DNA from: Candidatus Obscuribacterales bacterium
Lineage (GTDB): Bacteria > Cyanobacteriota > Vampirovibrionia > Obscuribacterales > Obscuribacteraceae
Direction of reading: 5' to 3'
DNA: 64,000 nt
Assembly: GCA_965228855.1 (NCBI GenBank)
Contig: CBDDIJ010000002.1
Span: 736,001-800,000, forward strand
Shown here: positions 18,813-46,965 of the stretch, piece after piece
Numbering within the stretch: position 1 is the first letter of the stretch
How the letters are laid out: every line of letters begins with the position of its first letter
The notes under the pieces: generated by a model
What the model saw: the letters and a program-made list of their open reading frames with translations, nothing else
Database searches by the model: none
What the model was told of the DNA's origin: nothing
Position numbers and translations under genes: made by a program

Positions 18813-19047
18813 CTACTATATACCGAGGTAGTACACAGCCTCCCGAATACCAGTCACAGCAATGTTTTCAGGATTTCTTATTTATAGTCCGCCCTGAAAT
18901 CGGTTGCTTTGGCTATCGTACGATGACGGTTTTGCCGAAATGCGTCATTGTGGCGTAGACAAAATCACCAAGCGGTTTACGTCTGATACCCAAATCACCT
19001 CGCCTGAAACCATTTCGCGCAAAACGTATTCCTAAGTTCTATAGTAG
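18813..19047. repeat. Repeat element copy A (CTACTATA 18813; 50-bp palindrome 18911-18960; TATAGTAG 19040)
   Basis: GGCTA-TCGTACG-ATGAC-N16-GTCAT-TGTGGCG-TAGAC; gaps 90 and 79 bp. Confidence 0.9.
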
Positions 19048-19071
19048 ACAGATTTGGTATATACTCGAAGC

Positions 19072-21228
19072 ATGAGTGGACAACGAGAGCCTCGGAAACG
19101 CAAGACGGTTCACATTAGTGAACAGGTTGAGCTCGTTTGCGCCGAAGACCGCGACAAGCGTACGCCTTTGCTGTCCAGTTTAAACTCAGCCAGTCAACTC
19201 ACTGAAGAAGAGAAAAACGATCCGCTGGTCGGGACCGTTCTTGCGGCTAAATACGAGATCCACGCGCTCTGTGGGCGGGGCGGCATGGGCATCGTTTACA
19301 AGGCACAGCATTTCGATTTGAAGCGCTATGTCGCGGTGAAAGTTCTCCACAAGCACCTTTTGAGCCACCAGGGCATATCTGATCGTTTCCGACTCTCGGC
19401 TCAGGCGGCACACGCCCTGCGGCACCCCAACCTGGTTTCGGTGACCGACTTCGGCTATACGGAAGAGGGACAGTTCTTCCTCGCCATGGATTATGTGATG
19501 GGCGAAACCCTGACCAGGAAACTGAAACGGGAACAGGAGCTATCAATAGACTCCTTCTTCAAAATCTTTTCTCAAGTGCTCGCCGGTCTCAAGTTCTGCC
19601 ACCAGAAGGGAATTGTGCACCGCGACATCAAGCCAAGCAACATTCTGATCACAGACAAAGAGATTAAACCGGACAGCATAAAGCTAGTGGACTTCGGCAT
19701 CGCGAAAGTTCTTCCTGAAAGCGAATCTTCCATCGATCACCTGACTCAAACAGGCGAGTTGCTCGGAAGCCCGCTCTACATGAGCCCGGAGCAGTGCCGT
19801 GGCGCGGACATCGATGCGCGGACGGATCTCTACTCGCTCGGCTGCGTAATGTTCGAGTCGCTGAGCGGCAAACCACCGTTTCAAGGAAAAAGTGCGATTG
19901 AAACATTGATGATGCAATGTTCGCAACCAACCCCGACATTGTACGAAGCAACCGGCGATGCGCAGCTCACCGAGCAGCTCGACGCGTTTATCAAAAAAGC
20001 GATGAGCAAGGATCGCGAAGATCGCTTTCACAGCGCAGAGGAAATGGAAGCTGCGCTGATGAGCATACAGCGGTTTCTTCACCTGCCAAAAATTGCCCGA
20101 CAACGTTTGACTCAACCCCCCCAGACTGGTACTGGAACTCCCTCGATTCAAGCCGCTCCGAAACCGTCGAAGCAAAAGATCGGTTTGGTCAGCATTGCAT
20201 TCTTGACGCTCTTTGCTGGAACCGTTTTTGCTGTGGCAGGCAAAGACTCGATCGTGCGAACCTATCTGAGCGCGAACCATTCGGACAAGACCGAAGCCAG
20301 ACAACAAGCTCTGGATACAATCAAACTTGGTGTGGTGGAGCGAAAAGAAGGCAACTTGAGCGCATCGAGAAAGCGACTCGAACGGGCGGGTTTGGAAACG
20401 GCGAGGGTGTTCGGACCAAACAGCGTGGAGTATCTGAAAGCGCAAACGGAGCTCGCTGCCACGGACATCGCGCAGGTCGAAGCTAGTGGCAATCTGCTCG
20501 CCGACGGTAAGCCGAACCCACTGTACCGGTTGCCTGAAGCAATTCTTCAGCGGTCACTCGAAGGTCTGCAGCGCGTTCGAAAAACTTTGAAGGACGATGG
20601 CACGGACGCTAATGAGTTGGAAGCGCAAGCGACCTTCCACCTCGCTCACATTTACGTCCAGGAGGGTGCTTTCGACAAAGCGAGAAAGCTTTACGAAAAG
20701 GGCTTTGCCCTGGTTAACGCAAACGTCTCAATGGGCAAAACCAACGCCTCCGACTGGTTCTACCGTGACTATGCCGACTTCCTGTGGCGAACCGGGCGAG
20801 AGCGCGAAGCCGCGAAGCTGGAGATGACTTTTCATCTTGATCCATGGGAGGCAAAACTGGCTTCAGAAGCTCCTTTGACGACAACAGACTTGAACGGCTT
20901 CTGGTCTGAACATAACATAGTGGCTCAGTTTTACGAGAAAAACGGAAAGGTGTTTGGTTCACACTGTGTGGTAGCGAAAAATGGGACTCGCATTGATGGC
21001 ACCATTGACGACACCACTCCTACAATTGAGGGAACGATCGAGAATGGCATTTTCAGAGGCACGGTTAAAAGCACTTACGGCGCCCGGTTTCTCGTGAACA
21101 TAGTTCGCATCGACAAATATTTAGTTTGGAAATTGGTTAAAACCGAATCAGCGGGAGAGTCCTACTTGCCACCATCAGCGGTGATGACGGCAAGCCAAGC
21201 TCCCAGAAGCACAGGTGGTTCGAAGTAG
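19072..21228 (+). CDS. Hanks-type Ser/Thr kinase with TM helix and TPR-like region
   Basis: GRGGMG, VAVK, HRDIKPSN, DFG, GSPLYMSPE. Confidence 0.92.
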   Translation: MSGQREPRKRKTVHISEQVELVCAEDRDKRTPLLSSLNSASQLTEEEKNDPLVGTVLAAKYEIHALCGRGGMGIVYKAQHFDLKRYVAVKVLHKHLLSHQGISDRFRLSAQAAHALRHPNLVSVTDFGYTEEGQFFLAMDYVMGETLTRKLKREQELSIDSFFKIFSQVLAGLKFCHQKGIVHRDIKPSNILITDKEIKPDSIKLVDFGIAKVLPESESSIDHLTQTGELLGSPLYMSPEQCRGADIDARTDLYSLGCVMFESLSGKPPFQGKSAIETLMMQCSQPTPTLYEATGDAQLTEQLDAFIKKAMSKDREDRFHSAEEMEAALMSIQRFLHLPKIARQRLTQPPQTGTGTPSIQAAPKPSKQKIGLVSIAFLTLFAGTVFAVAGKDSIVRTYLSANHSDKTEARQQALDTIKLGVVERKEGNLSASRKRLERAGLETARVFGPNSVEYLKAQTELAATDIAQVEASGNLLADGKPNPLYRLPEAILQRSLEGLQRVRKTLKDDGTDANELEAQATFHLAHIYVQEGAFDKARKLYEKGFALVNANVSMGKTNASDWFYRDYADFLWRTGREREAAKLEMTFHLDPWEAKLASEAPLTTTDLNGFWSEHNIVAQFYEKNGKVFGSHCVVAKNGTRIDGTIDDTTPTIEGTIENGIFRGTVKSTYGARFLVNIVRIDKYLVWKLVKTESAGESYLPPSAVMTASQAPRSTGGSK

Positions 21229-21278
21229 ACGTTTCAAAGACATCAACAAGGCGATCCGGCGTCCTGAAAGGCAATTGA

Positions 21279-23984
21279 TTGAACGAGAGAAAAAACTTTT
21301 GCCTATTGGCTTCGCCGTCCGTCGGGCAACTTTGCCTGGCGATCGCGTGTCTGGTCGGCTTGATTGGCGCCTCTTTGTATTTTCACACGTCGGCTTGTTC
21401 GAAAAATCCAGCGGCGTTCACAGACCATGTTGTGACAATAGACCTTGACGGACTCAAGCCCAACGAGTTGGAGCAGGTCACGCTCGATTGGACCGGCTCA
21501 GAACAACCAGCGTCTGCAGTACTTGTGCATCGTCTCCCAGAGTCGAATTCCTTCGCGGGTCTGGTTCCACCTAATGGGAAATTGCGACTCACGCTTCCGG
21601 ATTCTGTAAGGTCCAAACTGAATTCGATTAAGGTGACTGAGCGGGGAAAACCAGCTATGCGCCTCGATCTAACGAAGCCAACCGACCATGTTTTAGAAAC
21701 TCACACCGGCAGACTAACACAACTCTGTCAGACCGAGACTATCTATCCGACCAGCGCAGTGGTTGCAAACCAGCTATGGCTGTGGTTTTCCCTTGCACTG
21801 CTTCTCGCCGCAGCCGCCCTGCTTCTCCGCCAAGACAAGCTCCGACGACTCGCTGCCGGAACACTGCTTAGTGAGGCAAGCCGCCCACCAAGCCACCGAA
21901 CGGGCTGGTTTATCCTTGGCTTTTCAATTACCGCAGTCGCGATCGCCACTCTAGAAATCAAACAGCCACTATTCTTCCTGCAAGATGATAACTACATCCA
22001 GTTTCTCCCAGTGATTCTCCAGGGCTGCAAAAGCGCATTCAGCGGCGACTTACCGTTGTACAATCCGCTGCAGCTCCTCGGTGCTCCAACCGCCAGCATC
22101 GGCACATATGCACTTACATATCCAGGCACTTACATCGCTTATTTTCTTGCCTGCCTAATAAAGGCGCCTGAAGCCACTCTCGACGCATTTGCGATCCTAC
22201 ATTTAGTTTCTGCATATGCCGTGATGTATCTACTCCTCATCGACTCACGAGTACGCGGTTCCTTGAGTGCGTGCGGAGCGTTTAGCTATGCGCTTTCCGG
22301 CTTTTTTCTTATCGCCGGACGTTCCTGGTACTACATGCTTCCCGTGGCAGCCTGGGCACCACTTATGGTGCTTATCACAAACCGGTTATTGCGTAAGCCC
22401 TGCGGTCTATCCTGGCTTATTATCACCGCTCTGGCCGTTGGCATGTTCTTCCATTCCGGCAATGCCCAGATGTGGTTTTACACCATAATGCTTTGTGCGA
22501 TAACGTTAATCGCAGGCTGCGGTTTAAAACTCATTGGAGTGAAACGATTAATAGCCGCTCTGCCTGCCGTGATCGCAGGACTTGGAATCGCGTTTCCACT
22601 TCTCTACTTCCAGTTTGTTGAAACCGAAAGCGTCTGGCGACATCACGATCCCGGCGATATCTCCGGTGTCTCGCTCCTCCACATGCTGCTTCCACTGGGA
22701 GAGATTTTTGCGCGAGAGGAAACATTTGCGCCCGGTCGAACGTTTCCAGCTGAGATGTGCCACTTCGGAATTATCTTCGGAGCCCCAGTTCTGACGGCAC
22801 TGTTCTTGCTAATTGCGCGCATCAGTTTCTTCAAAACCGATAAAGCGCTTTTGCAGCAGGTGTTTAAACGAAACATCTGGCTGATCGCGTTTCTAATAGC
22901 CTTGCTGCTCGCGTGGGGCAGCCAGGGCGTTCTCTGGGACGCTGTTTCCTGGCTCCCCGTACTCAACAAATTTACTCAATCCGGAAAGCTACTCGCGTTT
23001 GTCACCATATTCGGTGTCATCGTTTCTGCCGTTCTGCTGGAGCGCTTGTTTTTACTTACACGAGTCCGCAAACGCACAGAGCGATTCGTTTTCCTGTCGG
23101 CTATCCTCGCGCTCTTCGTTCATTTAAACAACTGCCAGCACAGCTTTTACGACTTTGCCGATGCGCCGGCTTATCCCGCGCTGCCCACAAGGCTCCGGGA
23201 GAGCTGTGTAATTAAAAACGATATCAACGAAGCTGGAAGAATTTTCGCAATTTCTCCGGAACGGTCGAGAGAAAGGGGCTTCACAAATTCGCTGGCGCAA
23301 AACTTTCCGACATACTACAACGTCATATCGTTGAGCGGAATGGATCTACTCGTGTCCACGAACGCTTTGACCCTGGGCGTTTTAAAACGCCTGTACCAGG
23401 ACGCTCCCGACGTCGCGAGCAACTATGGCGTCCGCTGGATCGTTGTGCACGACGGCATGGTTAGACCGTCTTACGGCAACTCACCATGGTTGTGGCGATA
23501 CGAACAAGCTGACTTTTTCCAGACTCGCATCGCAAACACTCTACTTTCGAAGTGCGTCAAAGTCGCTGAACTCGAGCATGTAACTTTGTACGAAAATCCT
23601 GATGCGACGCCGATTGTGTTCTCCAAAGAGAAACCGGGAGCGGGTCTGCCAACCAAAATTTCGACTCGCGGACTGACAGTCGACGTCAACACTCTACAAA
23701 GCGGAGAAACTGTTATCGCTGCATTCATCGCCCGTCCCTGGCTCGTTGCGCGTCTGGACGGAAAACCGATTCCAATCATCGCAGACGCCTACGAGCGAGT
23801 CTCGATCAAACTGCCAAACACAGGTGCCGAGTTGCGAGTTGAGTATGAGCCGCCTCTGCTTCCGGCACTGGCCAGCGGTTTAGCCCTATTACTAATCGGC
23901 TGTCTTAGTGCTTTTGGTACGCGAAAGTGGGCGAATGGGGATGTTCAAATCAGTCAAGCAAATAAACTTGATGCGCCTGCCTGA
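21279..23984 (+). CDS. Large polytopic membrane protein, YfhO/GT-C-like
   Basis: QDDNYIQF..PLYNPLQLLGAP, many TM helices, C-terminal PW...LDGK...YEPP. Confidence 0.6.
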   Translation: MNERKNFCLLASPSVGQLCLAIACLVGLIGASLYFHTSACSKNPAAFTDHVVTIDLDGLKPNELEQVTLDWTGSEQPASAVLVHRLPESNSFAGLVPPNGKLRLTLPDSVRSKLNSIKVTERGKPAMRLDLTKPTDHVLETHTGRLTQLCQTETIYPTSAVVANQLWLWFSLALLLAAAALLLRQDKLRRLAAGTLLSEASRPPSHRTGWFILGFSITAVAIATLEIKQPLFFLQDDNYIQFLPVILQGCKSAFSGDLPLYNPLQLLGAPTASIGTYALTYPGTYIAYFLACLIKAPEATLDAFAILHLVSAYAVMYLLLIDSRVRGSLSACGAFSYALSGFFLIAGRSWYYMLPVAAWAPLMVLITNRLLRKPCGLSWLIITALAVGMFFHSGNAQMWFYTIMLCAITLIAGCGLKLIGVKRLIAALPAVIAGLGIAFPLLYFQFVETESVWRHHDPGDISGVSLLHMLLPLGEIFAREETFAPGRTFPAEMCHFGIIFGAPVLTALFLLIARISFFKTDKALLQQVFKRNIWLIAFLIALLLAWGSQGVLWDAVSWLPVLNKFTQSGKLLAFVTIFGVIVSAVLLERLFLLTRVRKRTERFVFLSAILALFVHLNNCQHSFYDFADAPAYPALPTRLRESCVIKNDINEAGRIFAISPERSRERGFTNSLAQNFPTYYNVISLSGMDLLVSTNALTLGVLKRLYQDAPDVASNYGVRWIVVHDGMVRPSYGNSPWLWRYEQADFFQTRIANTLLSKCVKVAELEHVTLYENPDATPIVFSKEKPGAGLPTKISTRGLTVDVNTLQSGETVIAAFIARPWLVARLDGKPIPIIADAYERVSIKLPNTGAELRVEYEPPLLPALASGLALLLIGCLSAFGTRKWANGDVQISQANKLDAPA

Positions 23985-24023
23985 GCCGCTCAACGACGAC
24001 CATACCTGAGAGGCTAGACTGAC

Positions 24024-24824
24024 CTACTTGATCGGCTGCATAAAGAGATCTTCGATATCGTCTTTCTTGATGTTACCATCCACCGAGAAGTATAAACTGG
24101 CTCTGTCTTTGGAACGATGATAGCCTTTGGGAATATCGAACAGTTTTGCATCGAGTGGAACATCTTTGATCTGGCGCGGTTCGATGATGACCTTCATAGG
24201 GCGCACACGCCCTTCTGAAGCTCGATTTCGCATTCTTTTCCTTCGGTGAATTTGCTTAGCGCCAATCGGCAAACCACGCTTAGGTGAGTAATCAACGGTC
24301 ATAAAACGGCACCACATCTGGTGCACCGCAACGGGGAGTTTCGCGGTGATGCAGGTGAACTCACCACCCTTGACGTCTTTTCCCCCAGCATCCTTTTCGC
24401 CTGTGAAACAGTCGAACTTCTTTCCTTTGCGATTGTTGGGAAGACTAACATCGGCTCCAGCCGAAACTTTAGCGAGCGGCATGGGCTGCATTCCTTCGCG
24501 CAACTCCTCGATGTAATCTTCGACCGGCATCACCAGAAAAACTTTGTTCTCAGGATTCATGAGTGTGGCTTTCGTCGGATTACTCACTAGCCAGAATGAA
24601 CTGCCAATCTGAGACTTGATGCGAAATCCGAGACTGCTGTAGGTGACCTCGGCCTTGCTTAGCATCTCTCCGTCGGACCAAACAGTGACCATAGTTTCGC
24701 TCGCCGGCGTTTTACCAGAAACTGCCGGGGTACCCTCCGCACGCGCATCAAGCGGCGCCAGGCTGTTTCCAACCAGAAGCGCAGCCATTGCACCAAGAAA
24801 TCGAGAACGCGCGCCGAGTTTCAT
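24024..24824 (-). CDS. Secreted hypothetical protein
   Basis: Signal peptide (ARA/EG), 266-aa ORF. Confidence 0.7.
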   Translation of the reverse strand: MKLGARSRFLGAMAALLVGNSLAPLDARAEGTPAVSGKTPASETMVTVWSDGEMLSKAEVTYSSLGFRIKSQIGSSFWLVSNPTKATLMNPENKVFLVMPVEDYIEELREGMQPMPLAKVSAGADVSLPNNRKGKKFDCFTGEKDAGGKDVKGGEFTCITAKLPVAVHQMWCRFMTVDYSPKRGLPIGAKQIHRRKRMRNRASEGRVRPMKVIIEPRQIKDVPLDAKLFDIPKGYHRSKDRASLYFSVDGNIKKDDIEDLFMQPIK

Positions 24825-25382
24825 TTACCACCGCCTGGCTCTGAGCCACCCATTTTAACCTGTCTTCTCCAGGGGTTTGAACGCGCAATGATTAGCGAGC
24901 GGCTGAGATGCTCTTCGGATCGAACTCTCTGCCAAAGTTCCAAAGCTACGGGGCTTCACGAGAAGGCGAGAAGGTTTGCCCAAAGCAAAACTCCGAAGCC
25001 AGCTGATTATGTGCTTGCGCGTCTCCCTAGACTGTTCTGAAAATGAGCCTCGCGATCAAATCTCCGCTAACTGGGCCAAGCTTTAAATAGACAATTTAAT
25101 CGTGATATCCCCAATATCAACACTCATGAGCTATTGTGAGGCTCCTTAACTGAAACTAAGGTCGACTTATCTTCTACCTTCCAGTCATACAGGAAATCTC
25201 TCAAAACCCAAAAGTGTTCAGCCCCTAGCTTTCTTCTCCGATTCGGTTTCTCCGAACGGCTGAACACCTGTGTGACCACCGCGACTCCCCGGAGCCGCAT
25301 GCCCTCGTGTTTTCGACTCGACGGGCGTTTCAGAACGTCTGTTTAACCGTGATGCCTGAAGGCTCACAAACAAGGAGAATTC

Positions 25383-26222
25383 ATGAACGACAAAACACCG
25401 TTCGCCCAACGCTTCGGACAGATTCAAGCGAATCTGGAAGAGGCTATAGGCGACAAACAGACTGCGTGGCTCGCCGCGCTGTCGATCGTGAGCGGCATGC
25501 CGCTGCTCATCGATTCGAAGACGTCCCAGGAGAAGCTCGCACGCGCCGTCGCCAGCGTGATAAGCGGCAGCTGCGAATCGCTCGGTTTCGGCTTTCAGAC
25601 GCTGAACTCGAACGTTCTCTACATGGGCAACCTGGACAACTGCTACTGTCTGCCCGCTGGCTGTCTGCGACTCGCCAGTCAAGCCGTTGGCAAGCCTGCG
25701 AACAAGAATGACAGCATCGTCGTTCTCATCGGTCACATCAGCCCACCGCACTCGCGCAAGTCGATGGCGTCGGCTGGACTGATCGACCAGTTCGCCTGCT
25801 TCTCGTCCGTCGACTTCGATGGCGAGCGCGTCTCCAGGGCTCCGGCTGCTGTGACGCTCGATGATGTTGCGGACATGCGCAAGTATGTCCGTGACAACGT
25901 CGTCCTCGACGACGAGGCGGTGCAGTTCATCCTCCGCATCAACAAGGCGGCAACACCGAGTCCGTCGGACGAAATTCCCGACGAGCTCAACGAATACGTC
26001 GCCGACGGTCCTGCACCGCGAACCTGGGTTCACCTGGCGGAACTGTCCCGTGTGGTCGCTGCTTCGCAGGGTCGCACGGTCGTCAGTCGCTCGGATGTTC
26101 TCGCGTTCGTCGAACCGGTGCTGTCGCATCGGTACCGCAACGACACCGTCTCGCCGTACAACCGCTTCGACCTGGGACGCCGCATCGCCGGCGCCGTCGT
26201 CTCGAAGCTCAAGGCCGCCTAG
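25383..26222 (+). CDS. Degenerate MoxR-like AAA protein (no Walker A/B)
   Basis: AAA-lid GPAPR...A..QGR..V...DV..VEPVLSHR; RBS AAGGAG. Confidence 0.7.
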   Translation: MNDKTPFAQRFGQIQANLEEAIGDKQTAWLAALSIVSGMPLLIDSKTSQEKLARAVASVISGSCESLGFGFQTLNSNVLYMGNLDNCYCLPAGCLRLASQAVGKPANKNDSIVVLIGHISPPHSRKSMASAGLIDQFACFSSVDFDGERVSRAPAAVTLDDVADMRKYVRDNVVLDDEAVQFILRINKAATPSPSDEIPDELNEYVADGPAPRTWVHLAELSRVVAASQGRTVVSRSDVLAFVEPVLSHRYRNDTVSPYNRFDLGRRIAGAVVSKLKAA

Positions 26223-26258
26223 CCAGTTGGCGACGCGGCAAACAGAAAGGAGTTCATC

Positions 26259-26588
26259 ATGAACAGCGTTTCTTTCATGTACCTGCTGCTGGCCGTCGTC
26301 GCCATCGTCAACGTCGTCTCGGCGTTGCTCTGGATTCGTCTGCTGATGCTCGTTCGAGCCGCCGACCAGATCCTGAGCTTCACCACCGCGTCGATGTACA
26401 CTCGCTACCTGTTCGGGCAGGTCATGTCCGGCAAGTGGTTTCGCACGCCGACCTCGCTTGTGCTCGGCAATCCCAAGCGCGACCCGGTCATCCGCAAGGT
26501 CATCGGTTCCGCTCAGTACCAGACCGTGCAGTTCCTGGCGTCGTTCGTCAAGGACCTGCCTGTCAACGTCGTGCCGTACTTCGTCTAA
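26259..26588 (+). CDS. Small membrane protein
   Basis: RBS AAGGAG, N-terminal TM, biased codons. Confidence 0.7.
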   Translation: MNSVSFMYLLLAVVAIVNVVSALLWIRLLMLVRAADQILSFTTASMYTRYLFGQVMSGKWFRTPTSLVLGNPKRDPVIRKVIGSAQYQTVQFLASFVKDLPVNVVPYFV

Positions 26589-26675
26589 CAAGGCACGCGC
26601 CTCCAGGCTGAGGCAGCATCACCTGCTGCTTCGGCCGGAGCTCTGTTTTAACTCAGAACATCGAGGAGAAAGTAC

Positions 26676-26897
26676 ATGCTCACACTCGCATCACACAATC
26701 CCGGCGCCAGCCAGCCGTTCCGCACTGGTCGCGAACGCAGGGAACGCCGCGCCTCGCTCGGTCTCGTCTGCCACGATGGTGGTCGGGCGCCCGCGCGCGA
26801 GGAACTCTCGGTCGCCGAACAGTACCGTCTGGCTGCCGAGCGGCGCGCTAAAACCGCCAGCGACGAGTACGTCCAGGCACCCTGCGACGTCGAGTAA
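26676..26897 (+). CDS. Small hypothetical protein
   Basis: RBS GAGGAG, biased codons. Confidence 0.55.
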   Translation: MLTLASHNPGASQPFRTGRERRERRASLGLVCHDGGRAPAREELSVAEQYRLAAERRAKTASDEYVQAPCDVE

Positions 26898-26957
26898 TGC
26901 CGCGCTGAAAACGCGGACCATTCACCAACAACACCAGCTATCTCGAAGGTGATTACC

Positions 26958-27272
26958 ATGGCTACTCTCTCTGTCGTCTCGAACAACAGCGCCACCATGC
27001 CCGCTCCGCTCCTCACGCGCCGCGAGCTGCGCGACCGTCGCGAGCGCCTGGGCATCGTCGTGCACAGCGGCGGTCGCATGCTCCCCGTGCCGATGTCCGT
27101 GTTCGAACCGCAGCACACGGTCGACGCGCACGGGAAGCGGCATGCTGTCACCCCCGTCTCCGAGTTCGTCAGTCCCGGTCTCCGTCCCGTCGGCCCCGCC
27201 GGCAGCGCGGCTCCGCGCGTGCACGTCCCCATGACGGCGCACGACAACTACATCATCGACCGCGAAGAGTAA
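26958..27272 (+). CDS. Small hypothetical protein
   Basis: RBS AAGGTG, biased codons, hairpin terminator at 27303-27337. Confidence 0.6.
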   Translation: MATLSVVSNNSATMPAPLLTRRELRDRRERLGIVVHSGGRMLPVPMSVFEPQHTVDAHGKRHAVTPVSEFVSPGLRPVGPAGSAAPRVHVPMTAHDNYIIDREE

Positions 27273-27401
27273 TTCTCTTTCGCGCAAGAGTGAAACCGGC
27301 TACCGAGCCGTTTTGGCGGACGGCTCGGGTTCTTTTCTTCATCGCTGTTTCAACAGCTCAACTAGAACCACCGATGGTATCAGTCGGTGAGGAGGATTGA
27401 C

Positions 27402-28613: not shown

Positions 28614-28716
28614 AACGACGATGACCGAAAAGCGTCCCGCCAGCGCTTCTCCAAATCTTCGTGAACGTCTCCGCCTCCCGAGGACCTCCCCAGGTCCTCG
28701 CTTTTACAAGCCACTT

Positions 28717-28940
28717 CTACTATATTCTTTCGTTACTCCGATATCCCAAAAGGCTACGTGGAAGCGGCTTTAAGCCGATGCCTCCCCACTCCTCCCTTCT
28801 TTCCTACTATATTCTTTCGTTACTTCAACATCCCAAAAGACTACATGGAAGAGGCTTTGCGCCGATGTCTTCCATCAAGGTCGCGTGGTTGTCTATGAGG
28901 CGTTGACAGTTTTCACAAAAAGCGGCAATGCCTGATAGAC
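28717..28940. repeat. Repeat element copy B with duplicated left arm
   Basis: CTACTATA at 28717 and 28804; GTCTA-TGAGGCG-TTGAC-N16-GGCAA-TGCCTGA-TAGAC 28891-28940; gap 79. Confidence 0.9.
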
Positions 28941-30714: not shown

Positions 30715-30795
30715 CGCATACGGTTTGCGGCGAGAGGGAGCATGCTCCTTCTCGCCTGCAGACTGCCTCTTCACACGAACGCATGAGCACATCCA

Positions 30796-31590: not shown

Positions 31591-31737
31591 CTACTATATT
31601 CTTTCGTATACATCAAGCCCCAAAACAGCGCCCCTGTAACAGTCTTCGACACCAGCCGTTTCGCCAACCCGCACAATATACGGGTTTGGCTACGAGAGAA
31701 TGACAGAATTTGCCAAAAGCGTCATTCTCTCATAGAC
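31591..31737. repeat. Repeat element copy C
   Basis: CTACTATA 31591; GGCTA-CGAGAGA-ATGAC-N16-GTCAT-TCTCTCA-TAGAC 31688-31737; gap 89. Confidence 0.9.
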
Positions 31738-38520: not shown

Positions 38521-38710
38521 GAGGAATTCTATTCTTTCTACTACATCCTTCGTATTTTTTCTACTATATTCTATCAAATACATTCCCAACGTAATAGTAG
38601 AACCTGTGGACGTTTCGACTACTTCCTCACTCAGTCAAATCTCGTTTGGCTACGGGAGAGCGACGGATTTTCGAAAATCCGGCATCGCACCGTAGATAGT
38701 GTGTTAGGTG

Positions 38711-39673
38711 TCAAGCCAGAGTGCTGTTAAACCTGGAATCGAATGGTTGTTTCGAGCGATATACAGCGACCATCATACGGAGAAGTTTGCGTGAGGCGGC
38801 ACAAACAATTACTTTTCTGTTTTTTCCCTTTGCTGCCAGTCGTTTAGCGAATTCAGCCACTGGCGGATTAAACCGAGTGGCGGTAAGGGCGGCCATGTAC
38901 AACATGCTGCGGATCACTGGATTTCCCATCTTCGAAATTCTGGAACGTCCTCGGACTGAAGAACCGGACTCACGGATCATGGGATTCAGACCACAGAATG
39001 CTTCGATCTGGCGCAAGCTCGTAAACGAGTCCATCATCGACAGTTCTGAGAGAAACGTGAATGCTGTTCTCCAGCCGACGCCCTTAATCGTCTGGAGTAA
39101 TTTAGCGTTGCTTTTCAAAGCAGGATTCTCGGAGACCAGCGTCTTCGCCAGCTTTTCCAGTGTTTGAATTTCGTTGGTAATGAACTTCAACATACGCATC
39201 TGAGAGTCTAAAGCGCGCTGGTCCAGGCGTCCCGATTTCATTCGATTTGTGACTTGGGTTTTGGTTTTCTTTAGCGCAGCGAGCTCTCTACAAATGTCTC
39301 TCAGGGAGCGAATGTCAGGATCCATCGGAGACCAAGGAAGGGGCTCCATTTTAAAACAAAAGTCGGCGATGATTTCCGCATCGATTGCGTCGGTTTTTGA
39401 ACGTCTAAATTGGCTCTTGCCGAAGGCGTGTATCAGCGCTGGATTTACCACGCTGACTCGATAGCCAAGTTTGTGTAGAAACTCCGCAAGGGGCTCCCAG
39501 AGCTTCCCCGTAGCTTCCATGCAAAAGTGAACATCCTTACCGGATGCTTGAATCCATTTGACTATTCTCTTGAACCCAGCTGGGTTATTGCTGACGTGCA
39601 GCTTCGAATTCTTCCTGTCCTGGCGATGGCAGTCTAACGTCTCCTTCGATACGTCGATTCCAACAAAGATCAT
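38711..39673 (-). CDS. IS110 recombinase/transposase
   Basis: DEDD: GIDVSK, MEATG, KTDAIDA; C-terminal IKGVG, RESGSS..RISKMG. Confidence 0.95.
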   Translation of the reverse strand: MIFVGIDVSKETLDCHRQDRKNSKLHVSNNPAGFKRIVKWIQASGKDVHFCMEATGKLWEPLAEFLHKLGYRVSVVNPALIHAFGKSQFRRSKTDAIDAEIIADFCFKMEPLPWSPMDPDIRSLRDICRELAALKKTKTQVTNRMKSGRLDQRALDSQMRMLKFITNEIQTLEKLAKTLVSENPALKSNAKLLQTIKGVGWRTAFTFLSELSMMDSFTSLRQIEAFCGLNPMIRESGSSVRGRSRISKMGNPVIRSMLYMAALTATRFNPPVAEFAKRLAAKGKNRKVIVCAASRKLLRMMVAVYRSKQPFDSRFNSTLA

Positions 39674-39714
39674 TGCTCCTACCTCCTGTTGCTGGTTCGC
39701 TTGGACGCGGATAG

Positions 39715-39937
39715 AATCTTGTCAGGGCGAGCCTTGTTTACACGTGCTAAATCGGTCAGGATTTGCTGTAGATAGTGTTCAGCCTTAGAGGACAAGACAG
39801 GAGCGGAAGTCCGAAATCTACGCCTCTGACTTTCTAGCCGGAGACAAAATACTGGTTTCTTCCGCTCCTCTATCCTCGCGTCCTCGGATAGCCTTGCCGA
39901 CTGCACGCTCCTGGTCAACAGCAACGTACCAGTCAAC
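39715..39937 (-). ncRNA. Predicted IS110 bridge RNA (ends approximate)
   Basis: 5' hairpin 39896-39937; target loop closed by 11-bp stem 39799-39809/39859-39869; guides match target and donor. Confidence 0.8.
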
Positions 39938-40104
39938 ATCTAACGTACAAGACAAAAACCAACCGTCAAAAAACGCAGATCCGCGAAACGCCCAACTATC
40001 GAATCTTTTCACCAAAGTGCATCTAGTACCCCATATAGTAGCAAGGGCTGAGAAAAGACGAGGGGGCGCATGGGTAGCGACTCCTCGTCCTAAAGTGAAG
40101 CGGT

Positions 40105-40719
40105 TTAGCGGACGACCTGCCAGCGGTTCGCTTGGTCACCTTCCCAGCGGAGGTGCTGCTTGCGCCCCTGCCAGATCTTCAAACCGTGGCTGCGAAGCAT
40201 CGCTTGTTCCAGTTCGGCCATCGCTTCCGCCTGCCTGCAGAGCGCATGGATCTGTTCCTGGCAGGCGCCGAAACGCCAGCTCATCGAATCCGAGAACTCG
40301 CGCAATTCCTTGTCGTCCGGGTTGGCTTTCGCCTTTTCCCGCAGCGCGACGTCGGCGCCGAGAACATGATTGATCTCCATGTCCCAGATCGCCTGCTCCG
40401 CCTTGCGGCGAGCGTCGAACCAGTTGGACAGCGCGACGCCGACGTTACCCTCGTGCATCACGTCGATAAACGCCTGGCTGCGATTGGCATCGTCCGCGGT
40501 GGCACTCTTCGGCAACGACTCGGCAAGCGCGAGCATCTCGAGGAAGGCCGCTCGCTGCTGTTTCGTCGCAGTGAAGAGCGTTTCGGCCTGGCGCAGGAAG
40601 TCGACCGCACAGAGCACGCTCTTGAACTCCGCGAGGATGTTCTCGAACGTGCGGTCGAACAGTGCAGCTTGCATGGTGTAGAGCGAACGCATGCGCTGCT
40701 GATGTTGTCTCGTGTTCAT
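40105..40719 (-). CDS. Alpha-helical hypothetical protein
   Basis: RBS GGAGGAG, biased codons, terminator hairpin near 40053-40089. Confidence 0.75.
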   Translation of the reverse strand: MNTRQHQQRMRSLYTMQAALFDRTFENILAEFKSVLCAVDFLRQAETLFTATKQQRAAFLEMLALAESLPKSATADDANRSQAFIDVMHEGNVGVALSNWFDARRKAEQAIWDMEINHVLGADVALREKAKANPDDKELREFSDSMSWRFGACQEQIHALCRQAEAMAELEQAMLRSHGLKIWQGRKQHLRWEGDQANRWQVVR

Positions 40720-40724
40720 GGCTG

Positions 40725-41519
40725 TTACTCCTCCTGCCCGGCAAAATGATAGCTGCCGTCGACATCGAACCAGCACTGGATCGAATTGGAGGCAAGGAGC
40801 GCGTCCAGCGTGTGGTCGAGCGCCTCAGCCTGACGCAACAGCGCCGTGAACTCGAACAGCATCGTCCGGTCGCGAATCGTGAGCACCGACGGCTGGTACG
40901 CCTCGACCTGGGCACGAACAACGGCGTGACCATCGTCCCACGACTCGATCGCTTGACCCAGTTTCTTGCGCATGTTTTCGCGCGTGCGCGCCAGGTCTTC
41001 ACCTTCCGGCGAGCCGAGGAACGCGATGAGTTGCGCGTCCTGAGCCTTGTCGGGATCGTTGCCGAGGCGGGCGCACATGGTTGTCACCGCCGATGATGCC
41101 GTTTCGACGGTCTCCAGTATCGTCGAAACCGCACCACTGGAGATGACCGGATGCACAGCTTTGTTCAGCTGCTTCTTGAGCGTTTCGGCGAGCGAGCGGA
41201 CGATCCGCATCGCGGCACGGTGTTCAGACTGAAGCTGTTTGATCCGCTTCTTGACCGAGATCACGGTCTCTTGCGGATAGAGCTTCTCCTTCGAGGAGAC
41301 GAGGACGCCGTCTTCCCAGGTGTAGGTCCCCTCACCGACTAGCGTCTCCACGCCGTCGACCTCGAGGAAAACCTTGGCGACGCCGGTTTTGTTCGGCGTG
41401 CCGAAACTGAAGCGAGGAGGGCTCCCCGCCAAAAATCCGTAACTGACCAGCTGCACGTCATTGTACGTGACGCGCACGTTGCCCGGTTTGTCACGGGGCT
41501 CGAATAGCTCAACGAGCAT
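40725..41519 (-). CDS. Hypothetical protein
   Basis: Codon-biased ORF, RBS AAGGA. Confidence 0.7.
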   Translation of the reverse strand: MLVELFEPRDKPGNVRVTYNDVQLVSYGFLAGSPPRFSFGTPNKTGVAKVFLEVDGVETLVGEGTYTWEDGVLVSSKEKLYPQETVISVKKRIKQLQSEHRAAMRIVRSLAETLKKQLNKAVHPVISSGAVSTILETVETASSAVTTMCARLGNDPDKAQDAQLIAFLGSPEGEDLARTRENMRKKLGQAIESWDDGHAVVRAQVEAYQPSVLTIRDRTMLFEFTALLRQAEALDHTLDALLASNSIQCWFDVDGSYHFAGQEE

Positions 41520-41671
41520 TCTTAAATTCCTTCTGCTTGTTTCAGATTCCAGCACCCGCACACGCGGGTACCAGCACGCAGTGGCTCTTGAAGAAGAGGG
41601 GGATAGGCGACCTCAGCCGCCTATCCCCGGTGTGCCCGAGCCAGGACACATCCAGCCTCAAGAAGCTGGAG

Positions 41672-42088
41672 TTAGCGCTTCGGCATCCGCACAGGCAGCC
41701 AGGTGCGGCCCTTCCAGGGCACTTCACCGACCAGCGTGGCGCCGCCAAAGGCGAGCGAGAACGTCACCAGAGCAGCACCGAACCCGCTCGTGACAGAGAG
41801 CGAGCCAATCAGCAGCGACGCCAGTCCGACGCCCAGCCACGAGCCCAGGATGAAGCACAGATACTGAACGACGCGTCCGGTCTGCATGAGTCCGAGAACC
41901 GCGCGCAGAGCGATCGTGACGCCGAGACCGAAGAACATGCCCGTGACGCCGATGATGGCGGCAGCCATGATACCGGTCAGCAGACTGCCGGCTGACACGC
42001 CGACGCCGAGCAGCAGCGTGATTGCGGCAGCCGCGATGAAGTAGCCGTTCATCAGGAGGAAGTGTCGGCTCTTGAATGCGTGACCCAT
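41672..42088 (-). CDS. Small multi-TM membrane protein
   Basis: Hydrophobic, Gly-rich; RBS AAGGA. Confidence 0.7.
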   Translation of the reverse strand: MGHAFKSRHFLLMNGYFIAAAAITLLLGVGVSAGSLLTGIMAAAIIGVTGMFFGLGVTIALRAVLGLMQTGRVVQYLCFILGSWLGVGLASLLIGSLSVTSGFGAALVTFSLAFGGATLVGEVPWKGRTWLPVRMPKR

Positions 42089-42115
42089 TGGGTTTCCTTA
42101 GTTGTTGAAGGTTGC

Positions 42116-42652
42116 TCAGGCTTGCGGAACCGTCAGATTGACTCCGTTGAGAGACACAGCCTTGGCAACAAATTCACCGATTCGCTGACGAATGGTATCG
42201 TCCGCGATGGCACCGCTCTGAAAAGCGGTCCTGTCCGCATAAACGAAACGTGGAATGACGAGGCAACGAAAGTCCAACATCAGACTGTTTGCGAGCCCCA
42301 TCACAGACATGTAACTAGACCGACCGCCGGCAGCGCAGAGAAAACCAACCGTCTTTTCCGTCCAGCCTTCGCCGGTCAGTTCGACAAGGTTTTTCGCCGC
42401 AGCGCCGACGTCGTAGTTATAAATCGGCACGGCAAGAAGGATGCACGAAGCTTCCCTGACTTTATCCGTGACCTTTTTGACGCTAGACCGACTGTAAGCA
42501 GCCGCACCGTCGCACAGGGGAAGTTTGACCTTTCGCAGGTCGAGAAACTCCACTACCTGACCGGCAGCCACCAGTTGCGCTTCGGTCTCACGAGCAAGCA
42601 GATAGCTTTTGCTATCGGGGTTGAGGCTGGTGCTTATTACCAGGTAGGACAT
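42116..42652 (-). CDS. NADPH-dependent FMN reductase family
   Basis: ISTSLNPDSKS, PIYNY..AKNLVE, AGG. Confidence 0.88.
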   Translation of the reverse strand: MSYLVISTSLNPDSKSYLLARETEAQLVAAGQVVEFLDLRKVKLPLCDGAAAYSRSSVKKVTDKVREASCILLAVPIYNYDVGAAAKNLVELTGEGWTEKTVGFLCAAGGRSSYMSVMGLANSLMLDFRCLVIPRFVYADRTAFQSGAIADDTIRQRIGEFVAKAVSLNGVNLTVPQA

Positions 42653-43518
42653 TCGTTTGTTTCCTTTCCGCTCTTAATCTGTGTCTTGAACGCGTCGAGG
42701 ACGGTCATCTCTCAGATTACCCGAAGGCAATCAAAGATTTGCAAAAACGAGATAGGCGGGGTTTAGAAGTCTTGAGACACAAAGATATAAGAGCGTAAGA
42801 ACTGTGCGACTTTAGAGCAACAGAGACCTCCGATTCCCACTTGAAAAGCCATTTGGTTCAAAACCGTTCACGCCGGCCGTCATGCCCGGAAACAAGGTCT
42901 TTGTTTCTGTTTCAGGCGCTCTGCGCGAATTAGCGCTAGGAATATTACGCGCGATTAACTCGGAAGCAACTAGCCTCGCTAGCGGACGTCTCCTCAAGGC
43001 TATGACACTTGCTAGATTAACCTGCGCTAACCTCGCAAAGCATTTCCGCGCGGAATTAATCTGTCCTTTGCTTGTTCAGGAACTAAATATTCAAAGGCTT
43101 AACCTCGAAAGCTTTCCTAAACGCTCAATGAGTAGGTGTTTCGGGCGCGTGGTTATTTTATTAAACGCATTTGATTTTTGATACATAAGACCCCTAGGTT
43201 GAAAAGTATCATCGCGTTTCAATTTCACTCAGGAATTTCCAAACCAACCCACACCCGCAACTGTAAGCCTGGTTTCGAGCTACTCGAATTGCGCATCTGC
43301 GTAAACCAGCATGTACGTCCGTGAGTTGCCTGGCTGTTTCTGCGTGAACGATGTTCGTTCGGTGGGATGGGTCCTGTCGCACGTCGCCTCTCGAAGTCGT
43401 TTCGATTGGCGGTTCTTACCCATGCGCGTGAAACCGGTTGCTTCAGCTTCCGGGAGATTCGCGTGCGTTTTTTAACCCGTGGACGCAATCGCGCCACACA
43501 AACACAAAGGTGATTACC

Positions 43519-44559
43519 ATGGCTATGACTCGCACTCTCGACGGTTTCGTTCCGGCTTACCTGCTCCAGCAGGCCGCCATCCTGAACCCCAACAACACCT
43601 CGCTGATCGACTCGATCGGCATCACCCAGCGCCTCTCCATCGCTGGTCGCACTCCCCTGCATCCGGCTCTGCGCCTGGCTGTTCTGGCTCCCGGCCAGGG
43701 CGACCGCCGCATCTTCGACTGCAAGGGCCTGGAGCGTCTCCCGGGCGACAAGGCTCGTCACGAGGGCGACGGCGAATACGCCGCTTTCCCGCTCGTCAAC
43801 GACGCCTACCAGTTCCACGGTGACGTTCGCCGCTTCCTGCTCGAGGTCCTCAAGCGCAACTCGCTCGACGGCAAGGGTCTCGACCTGATCGGCAGCTGCA
43901 ACTACGGCAAGGGCTACAACAACGCGTTCTTCAACCAGCGCCAGATGGTCTACGGCAACGGTGACGGCGTCATCTTCGCCAAGTTCATCATCCGCTCGGT
44001 CATCGGTCACGAGATGGCGCACGGCGTGACGCACCACACCTCCGGCCTGGAATACCAGGACGAGAGCGGTGCGCTCAACGAGCACTTCTCGGACGTCATC
44101 GGCGTTCTGGTCGACCAGTTCTGCGACAACGTCACCTCGGCCGCGCACCACTGGCTGGTCGGCCCGGGCCTCTTCACCGACCAGGTGAAGGGCAAGGCGC
44201 TGCGCAGCATGATCGAGCCGGGCACCGCCTACGACGATCCGAAGCTCGGCAAGGACCGTCAGCCGGCGCACATGAAGGACAAGTTCGAGGGCTGGGCCGA
44301 CAACGGCGGCGTGCACATCAACTCGGGCATCCCGAACCGCGCCTTCGCACTGTTCGCCAAGGCCGTCGGCGGCTACGCTTTCGAGCGCCCGCTCGCGATC
44401 TGGTACGCCACCAACTGCGGCGAAGACCGTGTCGGCGCCAACGCTTCCTTCCAGGACTTCGCGGACAAGACCATGGTGCACTGCGCCACGATCGCTCCCC
44501 GCCAGAAGAACAACCTGAAGGAAGCCTGGGGTGAAGTCGGCATCACCGTCGCCGGCTAA
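43519..44559 (+). CDS. M4 (protealysin-like) metallopeptidase, paralog of 6399-7415
   Basis: FVPAYLL propeptide, HEMAHGV, GALNEHFSD, DNGGVHINSGIPN. Confidence 0.92.
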   Translation: MAMTRTLDGFVPAYLLQQAAILNPNNTSLIDSIGITQRLSIAGRTPLHPALRLAVLAPGQGDRRIFDCKGLERLPGDKARHEGDGEYAAFPLVNDAYQFHGDVRRFLLEVLKRNSLDGKGLDLIGSCNYGKGYNNAFFNQRQMVYGNGDGVIFAKFIIRSVIGHEMAHGVTHHTSGLEYQDESGALNEHFSDVIGVLVDQFCDNVTSAAHHWLVGPGLFTDQVKGKALRSMIEPGTAYDDPKLGKDRQPAHMKDKFEGWADNGGVHINSGIPNRAFALFAKAVGGYAFERPLAIWYATNCGEDRVGANASFQDFADKTMVHCATIAPRQKNNLKEAWGEVGITVAG

Positions 44560-44577
44560 CGCTCGCGACTGACTGCG

Positions 44578-44617
44578 AGAGGGGCAAAGTCCAAACGGAC
44601 CTAGCCCCTCTCCTTTT
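44578..44617 (+). terminator. Intrinsic terminator
   Basis: GAGAGGGGC...GCCCCTCTC followed by CTTTT. Confidence 0.75.
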
Positions 44618-44628
44618 CCCGAATTAGT

Positions 44629-44777
44629 CTACTATAGAATACAGTCTAAGCATATCATCCAAAAGCCCCGCCCAGTGATGGTTTAAGCCCCTCCAGACCC
44701 AAGTACTCTGCGCCAAAAATCTGATTTGTCTATCCACCAATGACGCAATTGCGAAATTCCGTCGCTCTCCGATAGAC
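44629..44777. repeat. Repeat element copy E
   Basis: CTACTATA 44629; GTCTA-TCCACCA-ATGAC-N16-GTCGC-TCTCCGA-TAGAC 44728-44777; gap 91. Confidence 0.9.
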
Positions 44778-44946
44778 AGACTCAAAGGCATTGGATAAAG
44801 AGACTGAGGGGCAATAAGCGGTGCACCGGTTGTAAATTGGCGAATTATTTTTCCGCCCGACAACCAGCTAGCGAAACCAAGAAAACGGCACTAGGACACC
44901 AGTGAACTGCTTTCTTGAAGAGAGAATCTGGTTCGCCCACACCGAC

Positions 44947-45624
44947 TTACAAAAATTCCTTCGGCAGCGAATCAAACTGCCCCGACAGCGTGAAGCGATC
45001 ATCCTTCGGATGCTCACCAAGCGCATCGGACAACCTCTCATCCGGCAGCGGTTTGTACGTGACTCGAAAAGAATTTTTCTCAGCAGAGTCTTTCAGATAA
45101 GTGGCGTAGTCATCGCGAATTTGCTCGACTTCCGGATGCTCCAAACCCAATTTCGCGGATTTGATATACATCGCTTGCTGGTAGAAAACGCCCGCCTCAT
45201 CCACCTTCCGCCAGGCATGATAGAGCAACGCGGCGTTGTGCGTAATCGTTCCCGTATCCAAATGGTCCTGCCCAAGACGACGGCGATAGAGTTGCAAAAG
45301 CCTCATCATTACAGGCGCTCCATAATGATATCTGCGGCTACGATAGTAAATTTGCGAAAGAAGCTCCAGCGTAATGCCAACACGTTGGTCGTCTCGGTCA
45401 TACGATTCAGCAATCTCTAAAGCACGAAGACCCGCATGTTCAGCCTCGTCCAGCTTATCGTCCTTAATACACTGTTCAGTCTCAAGAACGTACTTCTGCC
45501 AACGAGCATTGCGCTGCTCCTCGGTTTCATCCACGAAAAAAGGGGCGGCGTCACCATCGCCTGGACGTGAGCCAGCAGGTGAAACACCTTTGTATTCGCC
45601 GGACTGACTTGTGACCTCACTCAT
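44947..45624 (-). CDS. TPR protein (kinesin-light-chain-like repeats)
   Basis: LGQDHLDTG...YQQAM..K..LGLEHPEV. Confidence 0.8.
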   Translation of the reverse strand: MSEVTSQSGEYKGVSPAGSRPGDGDAAPFFVDETEEQRNARWQKYVLETEQCIKDDKLDEAEHAGLRALEIAESYDRDDQRVGITLELLSQIYYRSRRYHYGAPVMMRLLQLYRRRLGQDHLDTGTITHNAALLYHAWRKVDEAGVFYQQAMYIKSAKLGLEHPEVEQIRDDYATYLKDSAEKNSFRVTYKPLPDERLSDALGEHPKDDRFTLSGQFDSLPKEFL

Positions 45625-46206
45625 TTATAGCCGCATTTCTTTGTTTGCCAAAACCGCACACACCGGATGAACAATCCGATTCCGCCCGAAGGCTCGGATA
45701 TTTTACAGCAACAATCGTCGCCAGTTCGTATTCGAAACACCAACAAAGAAATCCAGGAGTAAGATTCCAAGAGATGCATCAATCCCATCCTAACATCCGC
45801 CACATAGCGCGACACCTTGGCAAGTAAACCGATCGTGGCGTCCCGCTTGCCTTTCCAGCCTCTTAGACTCAAGACTCATATTTTTACGCGGTCTTGATTA
45901 CGATGGTCCCAAAGGCGCATTATCGAGAAATCGTTTGTCCCATGCTTGCTTTCACAGGATTGTCTTAGACCACCTATTCCAGCCTGTTTCCAAACTCGTG
46001 CACCTCAACAAGATTGTGAGCCGAGTCAAACCGCATGTGCAACGAAAACGAACCTGCGAAACAGCCAAGAACGTCGCTCCGTCCCGTTACTTGCTGGTTT
46101 TCGCCTGCCCGCCTCAAAGCACCGGTTCGCATTCCAAAGTCGGCAGACCTATCCGTCCGCCGCCCCGTGGCCCAAAAACCACGAGACTGAATCAAGGAGC
46201 CAAATC

Positions 46207-46584
46207 ATGTTCTGGACACTTGCTATTGTCCTCGTGCTCGCCGCCCTCGCAATCGTCGAAAACCGACGACTGAACAAGAAGGACGAGGCCGTGCTTCGAC
46301 ACACCATCGAAGTCAACCTCGGCATTCTGAAAGGCGAGCTCGAAAGATTGGCGCCGCTTGCGAAGTCTCTGCCCGCCGACGATCAAGCCGAAGCCGACAA
46401 ACTCCTGTCGCGCTCCCGCACAATCGTCTCCGACGTCGAACCCCGCATTGCGACTGCCCCTCGCCGCGAGCTAGGAAGAATCCTGCGCGACGTCTTTTCG
46501 GCAATGAATACATCCACCGAGCTGCACAAGCTGCTCGCGAAGTATTCACTCGTGCCGACAATCGAAGACATGCCTCTCGAGTAA
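46207..46584 (+). CDS. Small membrane-anchored helical protein
   Basis: RBS AAGGAG, N-terminal TM. Confidence 0.7.
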   Translation: MFWTLAIVLVLAALAIVENRRLNKKDEAVLRHTIEVNLGILKGELERLAPLAKSLPADDQAEADKLLSRSRTIVSDVEPRIATAPRRELGRILRDVFSAMNTSTELHKLLAKYSLVPTIEDMPLE

Positions 46585-46727
46585 CAGTCCGAGCCTGCCT
46601 TCGAGCCTGAGTCTTTGGTAGCTTGTCGTCAAACGATGACGCCTGGCAATCACTACTCTCAAACATCAACCAAAGACGGTAGCGGGGTGGGAAGCCATTC
46701 TCACCCTTGCTACTTTTCCTTCAACAT

Positions 46728-46965
46728 CTACTATACGCAGGCGTGATTCACCCTTCACCGAAAGGACGAAGTCAGCGGGGTTTCAACTGTTTTCGCTTCG
46801 TAGGTGGTCAGCAAAAACAAGGGTTTGGCTACGACAAAGCGACGGTTTCTTCGAATTTCGTCTACGTGTCGTAGACACGATGCGTCCTCTCCACTTCCAG
46901 AACAGACTAAAAGCTCGCTCCTGAAACCCTTTTGAGTAATTCAGTATCCCGATACTATCTAGTAG
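46728..46965. repeat. Repeat element copy F
   Basis: CTACTATA 46728; GGCTA-CGACAAA-GCGAC-N16-GTCTA-CGTGTCG-TAGAC 46827-46876; TCTAGTAG 46958; gaps 91 and 81. Confidence 0.9.

Follow-up and report, generated by a model that had tools for sequence, protein, structure and literature searches.

An origin-centred family of double-dyad repeats in Obscuribacteraceae and a PLD-HTH protein as candidate partner

REPIN-RAYT systems comprise hundreds of short extragenic palindromic repeats and an enzyme gene flanked by its own repeat type (10.1101/2021.07.10.451892; PMC3733652). Here we describe a likely counterpart in a 64-kb stretch of DNA (the window, positions 736001-800000 of contig C2) from the genome of a Candidatus Obscuribacterales bacterium (G000), a non-photosynthetic relative of cyanobacteria. 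Six 50-bp palindromes in the window, henceforth cores, are members of a family of about 200 copies packed around the replication origin. A protein that joins a PLD nuclease to an XRE-type helix-turn-helix (HTH) likely binds each core as a tandem site and likely copies units of core, arm and terminal box to sites beyond terminators near the origin; we think this reading probable, though by no means assured. A REPIN-RAYT-like two-part mobile system with a PLD enzyme and double-stranded operators is likely the best model, with binding and catalysis both putative. The likeness extends to paralogs with different repeat populations, slow turnover, vertical inheritance and a location mostly downstream of genes, and to an enzyme gene flanked by its cognate repeat, although here the gene encodes a PLD-HTH protein and not a RAYT. 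RAYT is an HUH tyrosine transposase, and no such enzyme (Y1_Tnp, RAYT) was found in G000 by a search whose control was positive in 6 of 14 genomes. Moreover, REPINs are tagged hairpins, whereas the obscuribacterial sites resemble operators of double-stranded DNA, with a constant pitch of 33 bp and, farther out, a phased box, and the system is strongly origin-biased, with multi-copy, patchy homologs of the enzyme. The tag letters GTAG and CGTC of REP (repetitive extragenic palindromic) sequences do occur in the consensus, but no hairpin follows, and a small excess of complementarity is matched by an excess of direct repeats. The BIMEs of E. coli likewise form mosaic tandem arrays at 3' ends and in convergent gaps and are targeted by IS110-family insertion sequences (IS); unlike them, the present elements have no REP hairpin units, their arms are phased but unconserved, and a dedicated gene lies between two copies.

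The core consists of two 17-bp dyads spaced 33 bp centre to centre, with GKCTA/TAGMC ends and a central spacer of the T-tract/A-tract type. In the window, where no strand is assigned to the cores, they lie at 18911..18960 (core A, with its two 17-bp dyads), 28891..28940 (B), 31688..31737 (C), 38648..38696 (first 49 bp of D, the last base being at 39953, beyond an IS), 44728..44777 (E) and 46827..46876 (F). The first-pass annotation had reported these six starts, and five copies are exact while D deviates solely at its last base, where an IS110 element starts. The form of D with the IS removed, which it had assumed, is seen in the core-bearing relative G007 (about 95% identical to G000, with 800 kb used in the comparison) and in a public contig that skips 1256 nt. 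All six copies fall between genes and have a gene 3' end to their left, again as proposed. Their excess over chance is clear from the whole genome, in which the strict pattern has 135 matches and the reversed pattern none. With a position weight matrix (PWM; sites called at at least 18 bits, the reversed genome serving as negative control) we found 207 cores in 159 clusters, and lowering the threshold to at least 5 bits gave 213, which leaves a clean gap; the reversed genome had no site at at least 5 bits. The distribution relative to oriC, which it had suggested checking, is strongly biased: 171 of the 207 cores cluster around oriC, in C2 between 77 kb and 1.2 Mb, on both sides of the GC-skew minimum at 789 kb. 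The window contains dnaA (56753..58609, minus strand), and the origin sits inside the element-rich domain. The sole Rfam match in the window is a tRNA, and no known RNA family coincides with the repeats.

Complementarity between the left and right N7 spacers, from which a folded hairpin or cruciform had been suggested, is real but modest (2356 pairs versus 2233+-27 in half-shuffles, 145 clusters), and direct identity between core halves is in excess as well (1337 versus 1274+-20). Since both are in excess and the folding energy hardly differs from that of shuffles (mean -15.8 versus -14.4 to -15.6), the hairpin proposal fares poorly, and we read the halves as double-stranded protein sites, presumably homogenised by local conversion. 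In an analogous module of the related genome G079, described below, the halves occur in direct or inverted orientation.

The cores are parts of larger units whose phased terminal boxes, arms and partner gene were absent from the first-pass annotation. The repeat unit is core-arm-box, with a 19-bp box at helically phased distances of 68/79/91/102 bp. The strong half of this quasi-palindrome, (C/A)TACTA-N7-T(C/A)GTAT, is an outward TATAGTAG located 67-69, 77-83, 87-93 or 99-104 bp off the core ends, and the box ends in TAGTAG. Among the 159 clusters, TATAGTAG stands on both sides of 66, on one side of 77 and on neither side of 16; strong boxes remote from cores mostly belong to cores split by insertions. 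In the window, the boxes of element A lie at 18813..18831 (plus strand, CTACTA-N7-TMGTAT type, 90-nt arm) and 19029..19047 (minus, 79-nt arm). Element B has a box at 28804..28822 (plus, 79-nt arm) and a duplicated outer box at 28717..28735 (plus), and element C has one at 31591..31609 (plus, 89-nt arm). The left box of D is at 38561..38579 (plus, 79-nt arm) and its right box, displaced by the IS, at 40023..40041 (minus). The box of E (44629..44647, plus, 91-nt arm) lies directly beyond the terminator of an M4 peptidase gene, and those of F are at 46728..46746 (plus, 91-nt arm) and 46947..46965 (minus, 81-nt arm, TCTAGTAG variant). Tandem arrays repeat the core-arm-box unit with a short linker.

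The arms contain phased A- and T-tracts anchored on the box and are otherwise unrelated in sequence, with a median identity of 32%. The left and right arms of one element are no more alike than shuffles (17.7 versus 17.3+-0.5 of 55 positions). An RNA hairpin in the arms was rejected, as we found no pairing covariation and folding no better than that of column shuffles. Arms face a gene 3' end in 150 of 205 cases, and the box starts 12-18 nt, typically about 14 nt, past the terminator stem in 65 of 123. In the origin domain, 53 of 74 convergent gaps hold an element, against 10 of 107 divergent ones. The box also occurs in congeners that have no core, at the exact N7 spacing (14 instances in G002 versus 0-1 at other spacings) and after the terminators of orthologous genes, and we saw it in four further genera, in regions chosen for holding it. 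On these comparisons the box is older than the core.

Substitution between G000 and G007, taken from 53 of 79 mapped arms, amounts to 3.9% in the core and 1.2% in TATAGTAG, compared with 11.4% in the arms and 10.8% at third codon positions, which indicates that core and box are under purifying selection and that the arms evolve neutrally. Against this background of unrelated arms, 10 related pairs in 16 clusters stood out among 209 arms, although the members of a pair are separated by 10 kb to 1 Mb or lie on different contigs. Identity within these pairs spans the whole core, one arm and the box as far as TAGTAG, and falls to background directly outside both ends. The distance between related units and their sharp ends argue that units have been copied, and the limits of identity set the copied unit at core-arm-box, about 137-160 bp. 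Tandem copy number differs between G000 and G007. The first-pass annotation had offered the core of a non-autonomous mobile element as one of its readings; with units copied between distant loci and a core-flanked candidate enzyme gene, that reading fits best.

The candidate gene lies outside the window (G000 C2:103074-103847) and encodes a 257-residue protein with a PLD (HKD) nuclease domain and a HipB-like HTH. A core stands 173 bp before it and another 42 bp after it, each with its own box, and this layout recurs at the G007 ortholog (172/44 bp). The route to this gene was a G007-specific segment, between two arrays, that encodes a PLD-like domain and an HTH and has the C2 gene as its best relative in G000. 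The G007-only paralog (54% identical) is flanked on both sides by arrays of GTCAA-type cores (109/41 bp) and occupies the site of a single core in G000. Over the same span, GTCAA-type cores number 46 in 11 clusters in G007 versus 8 in 7 clusters in G000, whereas main-type cores, whose gene both genomes keep, number 105 in 67 clusters and 80 in 63. G000 has five paralogs, all in C2 between 67 kb and 1.04 Mb; at C2:1002 kb two boxes enclose one paralog cassette, and the corresponding site in G007 and in a metagenome contig (L174) is box-core-box. We noticed no toxin or restriction enzyme partner beside the G000 gene.

Across 113 homologs, H107, D114, N124, C156 and C159 are invariant and K109 is 99% conserved, so that the motifs HxKxxxxD, GSxN and CxxC vary little or not at all; the HTH recognition region, by contrast, is variable. 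Pfam finds PLDc_2 in 99 and HTH_3 in 106 of them, and the PADLOC model for Mokosh MkoC matches 112 of the 113 through the PLD domain only. The AlphaFold model (pLDDT 95, pTM 0.86) resembles Nuc, NucT, Zucchini, FAM83 and TrmBL2 in fold, and its HTH resembles HipB and C-proteins; matches in the ESM Atlas all scored <0.9 and serve as leads only. HxKxxxxD, GSxN and the Nuc fold together place the protein in the PLD superfamily. It is predicted to dimerise through its HTH: the homodimer model scored 0.57 against 0.00 for the best control, with an interface confined to the HTH part, agreement in at least 66% of contacts between runs and pLDDT of at least 78. Of 30 solved dimers, 20 attained the mark applied, as did 1 of 23 monomers, and likeness to solved HipB-type dimers may account for the pass.

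Described relatives share parts of this design. As with HipB and C-protein operators, an XRE-type dimer with a C-terminal dimer strand would meet tandem palindromes, but here the HTH is fused to a nuclease and the operators are dispersed genome-wide. BfiI, Nuc and Mokosh nucleases have the same single-HKD PLD domain, which BfiI joins to DNA recognition; the present protein differs in standing alone, with a CxxC linker and an HTH, no helicase fusion and no methyltransferase noticed. In the literature searched we found no link of these enzymes to dispersed repeats. TrmBL2, a fold match, also combines an HTH and a PLD-like fold in one DNA-binding protein; it is an archaeal chromatin protein with the opposite domain order and no HKD catalysis. 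The PLD nuclease BfiI forms a single active site where its subunits meet (PMC2853115) and can transesterify via a proposed covalent intermediate (PMC2475615).

Homologs occur in 41 of the 104 Obscuribacteraceae family genomes surveyed (E<=1e-15), although a few of these hits are long proteins that match through their PLD domain only. A sample of 400 other genomes of the phylum, with no further members of the family in it, yielded none, and 324 clusters match in a 50% library (E<=1e-10). We examined 50 homolog loci, of which 30 were returned automatically and 20 were hand-picked from the match list, for a strong dyad pair (four half-sites, score >=9.5, within about 500 bp of the gene). Such a pair stands beside 21 of the 50 loci, and beside 19 of 48 once the two discovery loci are removed, compared with 3 of 300 control genes. 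Its pitch is 31-34 bp (33 bp in 11 of the 21), and the dyad sequences differ by lineage. In three of four lineages examined, G005, G013 and G079, the dyads are also dispersed: that of G005 has 17 genome hits (control 1) and that of G013 has 21 (control 0). In G079 we found 51 dyads, in that genome only, in a 113-bp module with four dyads spaced 31/33/31 bp in all 13 copies fetched (L241-L247, L291-L296). This module contains the box and a T-tract/A-tract central spacer, and, as predicted, the repeat, first found through its box, starts 6 bp past the stop codon of one of six G079 homologs.

These observations suggest a mechanism. One HTH dimer would occupy each 17-bp dyad, and we consider it very likely that dimers do bind the dyads. 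Two dimers 33 bp apart would join their single-HKD domains into an active site; bending of the phased A/T-tract arm would bring this site to the box, at a distance of 68-102 bp, where DNA would be cut and rejoined via a phospho-histidine intermediate. That adjacent dimers assemble the nuclease, cut and rejoin at the box and insert units beyond terminators is, taken as a whole, a fairly probable proposal. Core and HTH would diverge in step with each other, with the box unchanged throughout the family, and copying would be rare, the sites then being inherited vertically under selection, as with REPINs. A bolder version could go either way: a new transposase class in which a PLD-fold enzyme, guided to tandem operators by a fast-evolving HTH, becomes active only where a pair of dimers sits at the 33-bp spacing, carries out cutting and rejoining at a box that lies whole helical turns off, and drives lineage-specific repeat populations throughout Obscuribacteraceae. 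It would be an analogue of REPIN-RAYT that arose independently by combining a nuclease of the defence type with an HTH of the antitoxin type. The chemistries known for transposases comprise DDE, HUH, serine and tyrosine types and a few more. In literature searches confined mostly to open-access papers, we found neither a PLD-based transposase nor any account of this repeat or this protein family.

Several observations weigh against the copying model. The PLD domains are not confidently paired in the dimer model, 29 of the 50 homolog loci have no strong dyad pair, and the 50 include near-duplicates from sister genomes besides the hand-picked ones. The dyad of the fourth lineage, G041, occurs solely at its own gene, and five of the six G079 homologs have no adjoining module. 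The array sizes compared between G007 and G000 may be assembly-biased, and G000 is 95% complete. Most arms are unrelated, and positions are stable, since 58 of 75 G007 clusters are common to both genomes, 2 are G007-only and 15 are unmappable. We found no clean pair of empty and filled sites and no target duplication, and four candidate sites looked like replacements. No related pair has both arms in common, so gene conversion could also explain the copies, and the box may be a host site because it is found after terminators in congeners that have no G000-type core. The repeats are real and under selection, and they most likely belong to a previously undescribed system of enzyme plus repeats. 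If the PLD enzyme does copy them, this would be an undescribed, PLD-based kind of mobile DNA and a second, independent origin of the REPIN-like life style of an enzyme with its repeat population, which bears on why bacteria keep hundreds of repeats. The dozens of natural protein-operator pairs, each gene beside its own sites, would supply a specificity code ready for use and allow direct testing in E. coli.

Of the alternatives, the one that survives best, although we judge it unlikely, is that the protein does bind the cores but has been domesticated for an architectural or termination role. Bound tetramers and a box-binding protein would form bent complexes at gene 3' ends, which would serve as roadblocks or give order to the origin domain, and copies would spread by ordinary gene conversion and not through the nuclease. 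This alternative is consistent with the purifying selection at core and box, with the fixed distance from terminator stem to box and with the preference for convergent gaps; the fold match to the chromatin protein TrmBL2 and the failure to find a chromosomal ParB in five genomes point the same way. A purely architectural protein sits uneasily, however, with near-invariant HKD and GSxN residues, with patchy, multi-copy homologs each having their own sites, with sharp-ended copied units and with the five congeners that have the same origin domain and no core. Even under this alternative, the origin domain would hold an undescribed DNA-protein system, in a lineage in which we found no chromosomal ParB.

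The first-pass annotation had also proposed tandem sites for an enhancer-like activator. The tandem protein sites stand but an activator regulon is unsupported, since most arms face gene 3' ends and the neighbours are functionally unrelated. In its fuller form, with the core as enhancer-like site and the box as the -10 element of antisense or outward promoters, we regard this idea as very improbable. Two 17-bp dyads three turns apart do resemble NtrC enhancers, TATAGT is like the TATAAT-like -10 of the genome, the elements are helically phased, and an NtrC-like gene that lacks the GAFTGA region (L239:9893-11209) occurs only in G000 and G007 among five genomes. But the box is a quasi-palindrome with exact N7 spacing, 25 of 209 boxes alter the would-be -11 A, the flanking genes have no common function, and the NtrC-like gene, despite its fitting distribution, is split by a 1.4-kb insertion in G007, for which it was rejected as partner. 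A sigma54 enhancer was likewise rejected, as the box has no GG-N10-GC.

A further proposal, an attC-like site for a tyrosine recombinase, is not supported, given the absence of cassette arrays and, among the pairs listed, of inverted orthologous cores, and given the weak hairpin signal. Its broader version, in which core or box is an attC- or dif-like site bound by two degenerate Xer-like proteins of the origin domain, is highly improbable even though the box has 6-7-6 geometry and the domain does encode two conserved Xer-like paralogs with altered catalytic motifs. These paralogs (L226:3144-4055 and L234:9775-10713) have Lys for the box I Arg, no catalytic Lys loop and QxxR for HxxR, and are 82-84% conserved across the genus; a separately degenerate relative with no Tyr occurs in G078 and G079. 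Precedents for such proteins are YopR, which lost recombinase function (10.1101/2022.10.21.513154), and XerD, which unloads SMC (PMC12322038). The genes are nevertheless present in 7 of 7 congeners, core-free ones included, for which the pair was rejected as partner; in G092 and G073, which bear the box, no hit reached E<=1e-40, and the proteins could at most bind the box and would leave the core unexplained. An ordinary REP/BIME family or a MITE (miniature inverted-repeat transposable element) with a lost transposase is scarcely credible, for all that the 3'-end location, tandem arrays and IS110 targeting parallel BIMEs and the CTA...TAG ends recall IS630-type insertion at CTAG, since neither RAYT nor an IS630-type DDE_3 transposase was found (the latter in 5 genomes, other DDE families not having been searched), hairpins are weak, the two arms of an element are unrelated, 77 of 159 clusters are single-armed, and neither the paired terminal inverted repeats nor the target duplication at empty sites of a MITE was found.

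Other candidates were also rejected. Integron attC sites (RYYYAAC/GTTRRRY) have other ends than GKCTA/TAGMC, the cores fold weakly, and most of their neighbours are syntenic; an invertible element is countered by the lack of an inverted orthologous core among the pairs listed; and the serine resolvase family PF00239, expected for a res site, was not found in G000 or G007. The cores do not match parS, as had been stated, with one 1-mismatch parS-like hit only and a ParB_N match solely on contig C4. Extra gyrase or topo IV subunits, HU, sigma factors and Lrp/AsnC were absent or not specific to core-bearing genomes, and a retron-type reverse transcriptase gene directly upstream of one element (L227:4459-5628) is truncated in G007. 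A phage origin of the repeat was rejected, as viral contigs gave no core hit.

The core is confined to a narrow clade: among the 104 family genomes it occurs in G000, G007 and G006, the last with one or two hits (L086-L087). The core-bearing small contigs of G006 are 73-86% identical to G000 and a long contig of G006 66-77%; because of this difference the former may be misbinned. A species-wide scan returned 48 loci, of which 45 are labelled Obscuribacterales; the other 3 (L004-L006) share a contig that comes from a bin labelled Acidobacteria, has flanks matching G000 by eye and looks misbinned from the G000 clade. In metagenomes, 88 of 93 pattern loci pass the PWM and most align to G000; the other 5 look like chance or unrelated repeats.

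The origin bias itself may reflect local spread from the genes in the domain and its stronger terminators, which have a mean fold of -20 versus -16 kcal/mol. This origin-flanking domain of about 1 Mb (C2:77000-1125000) has a GC content at third codon positions (GC3) of mostly 0.6-0.8 versus about 0.54 elsewhere, along with a lower coding density, and does not include the ribosomal protein genes; G002 shows this contrast too. Genes beside elements have a GC3 of 0.74 versus 0.65. Their orthologs in core-free congeners have equal GC3 (rho 0.90, 117 pairs), so the high-GC3 gene class predates the core. The adjoining C2:1-77000 has GC3 above 0.8 and no cores. Contig C4 may be foreign or chimeric, as its GC3 switches from 0.25-0.3 to about 0.8 and it holds the only ParB hit.

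Most core neighbours are syntenic chromosomal genes with no common function, and 11 of 31 G007-specific segments lie within 350 bp of cores, a count that has no proper null and is not used as evidence. The IS110-family element at the outer end of core D (38697..39952, minus strand, transposase reading frame 38711-39673) is one of three identical copies, each inside a core. All 7 IS110 copies (two types, with 3 and 4 copies) sit only inside elements, each type at its own core position; beyond the window they lie at C2:858552, 1120761, 197250 and 987926 and at C5:861234 and 1461455, and they offer a natural case for checking bridge-RNA target loops. In G007, short-chain dehydrogenase and membrane protein genes (C3:5952-7477 and 330554-331320), each between two cores and absent at the same place in G000, are possible cargo of composite units. 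Elsewhere, G000 has a second RNA polymerase beta-like gene (C3:2668579-2672370), 43% identical to rpoB and with no adjoining rpoC, and an array of about 20 tRNA genes at C3:724500-727900.

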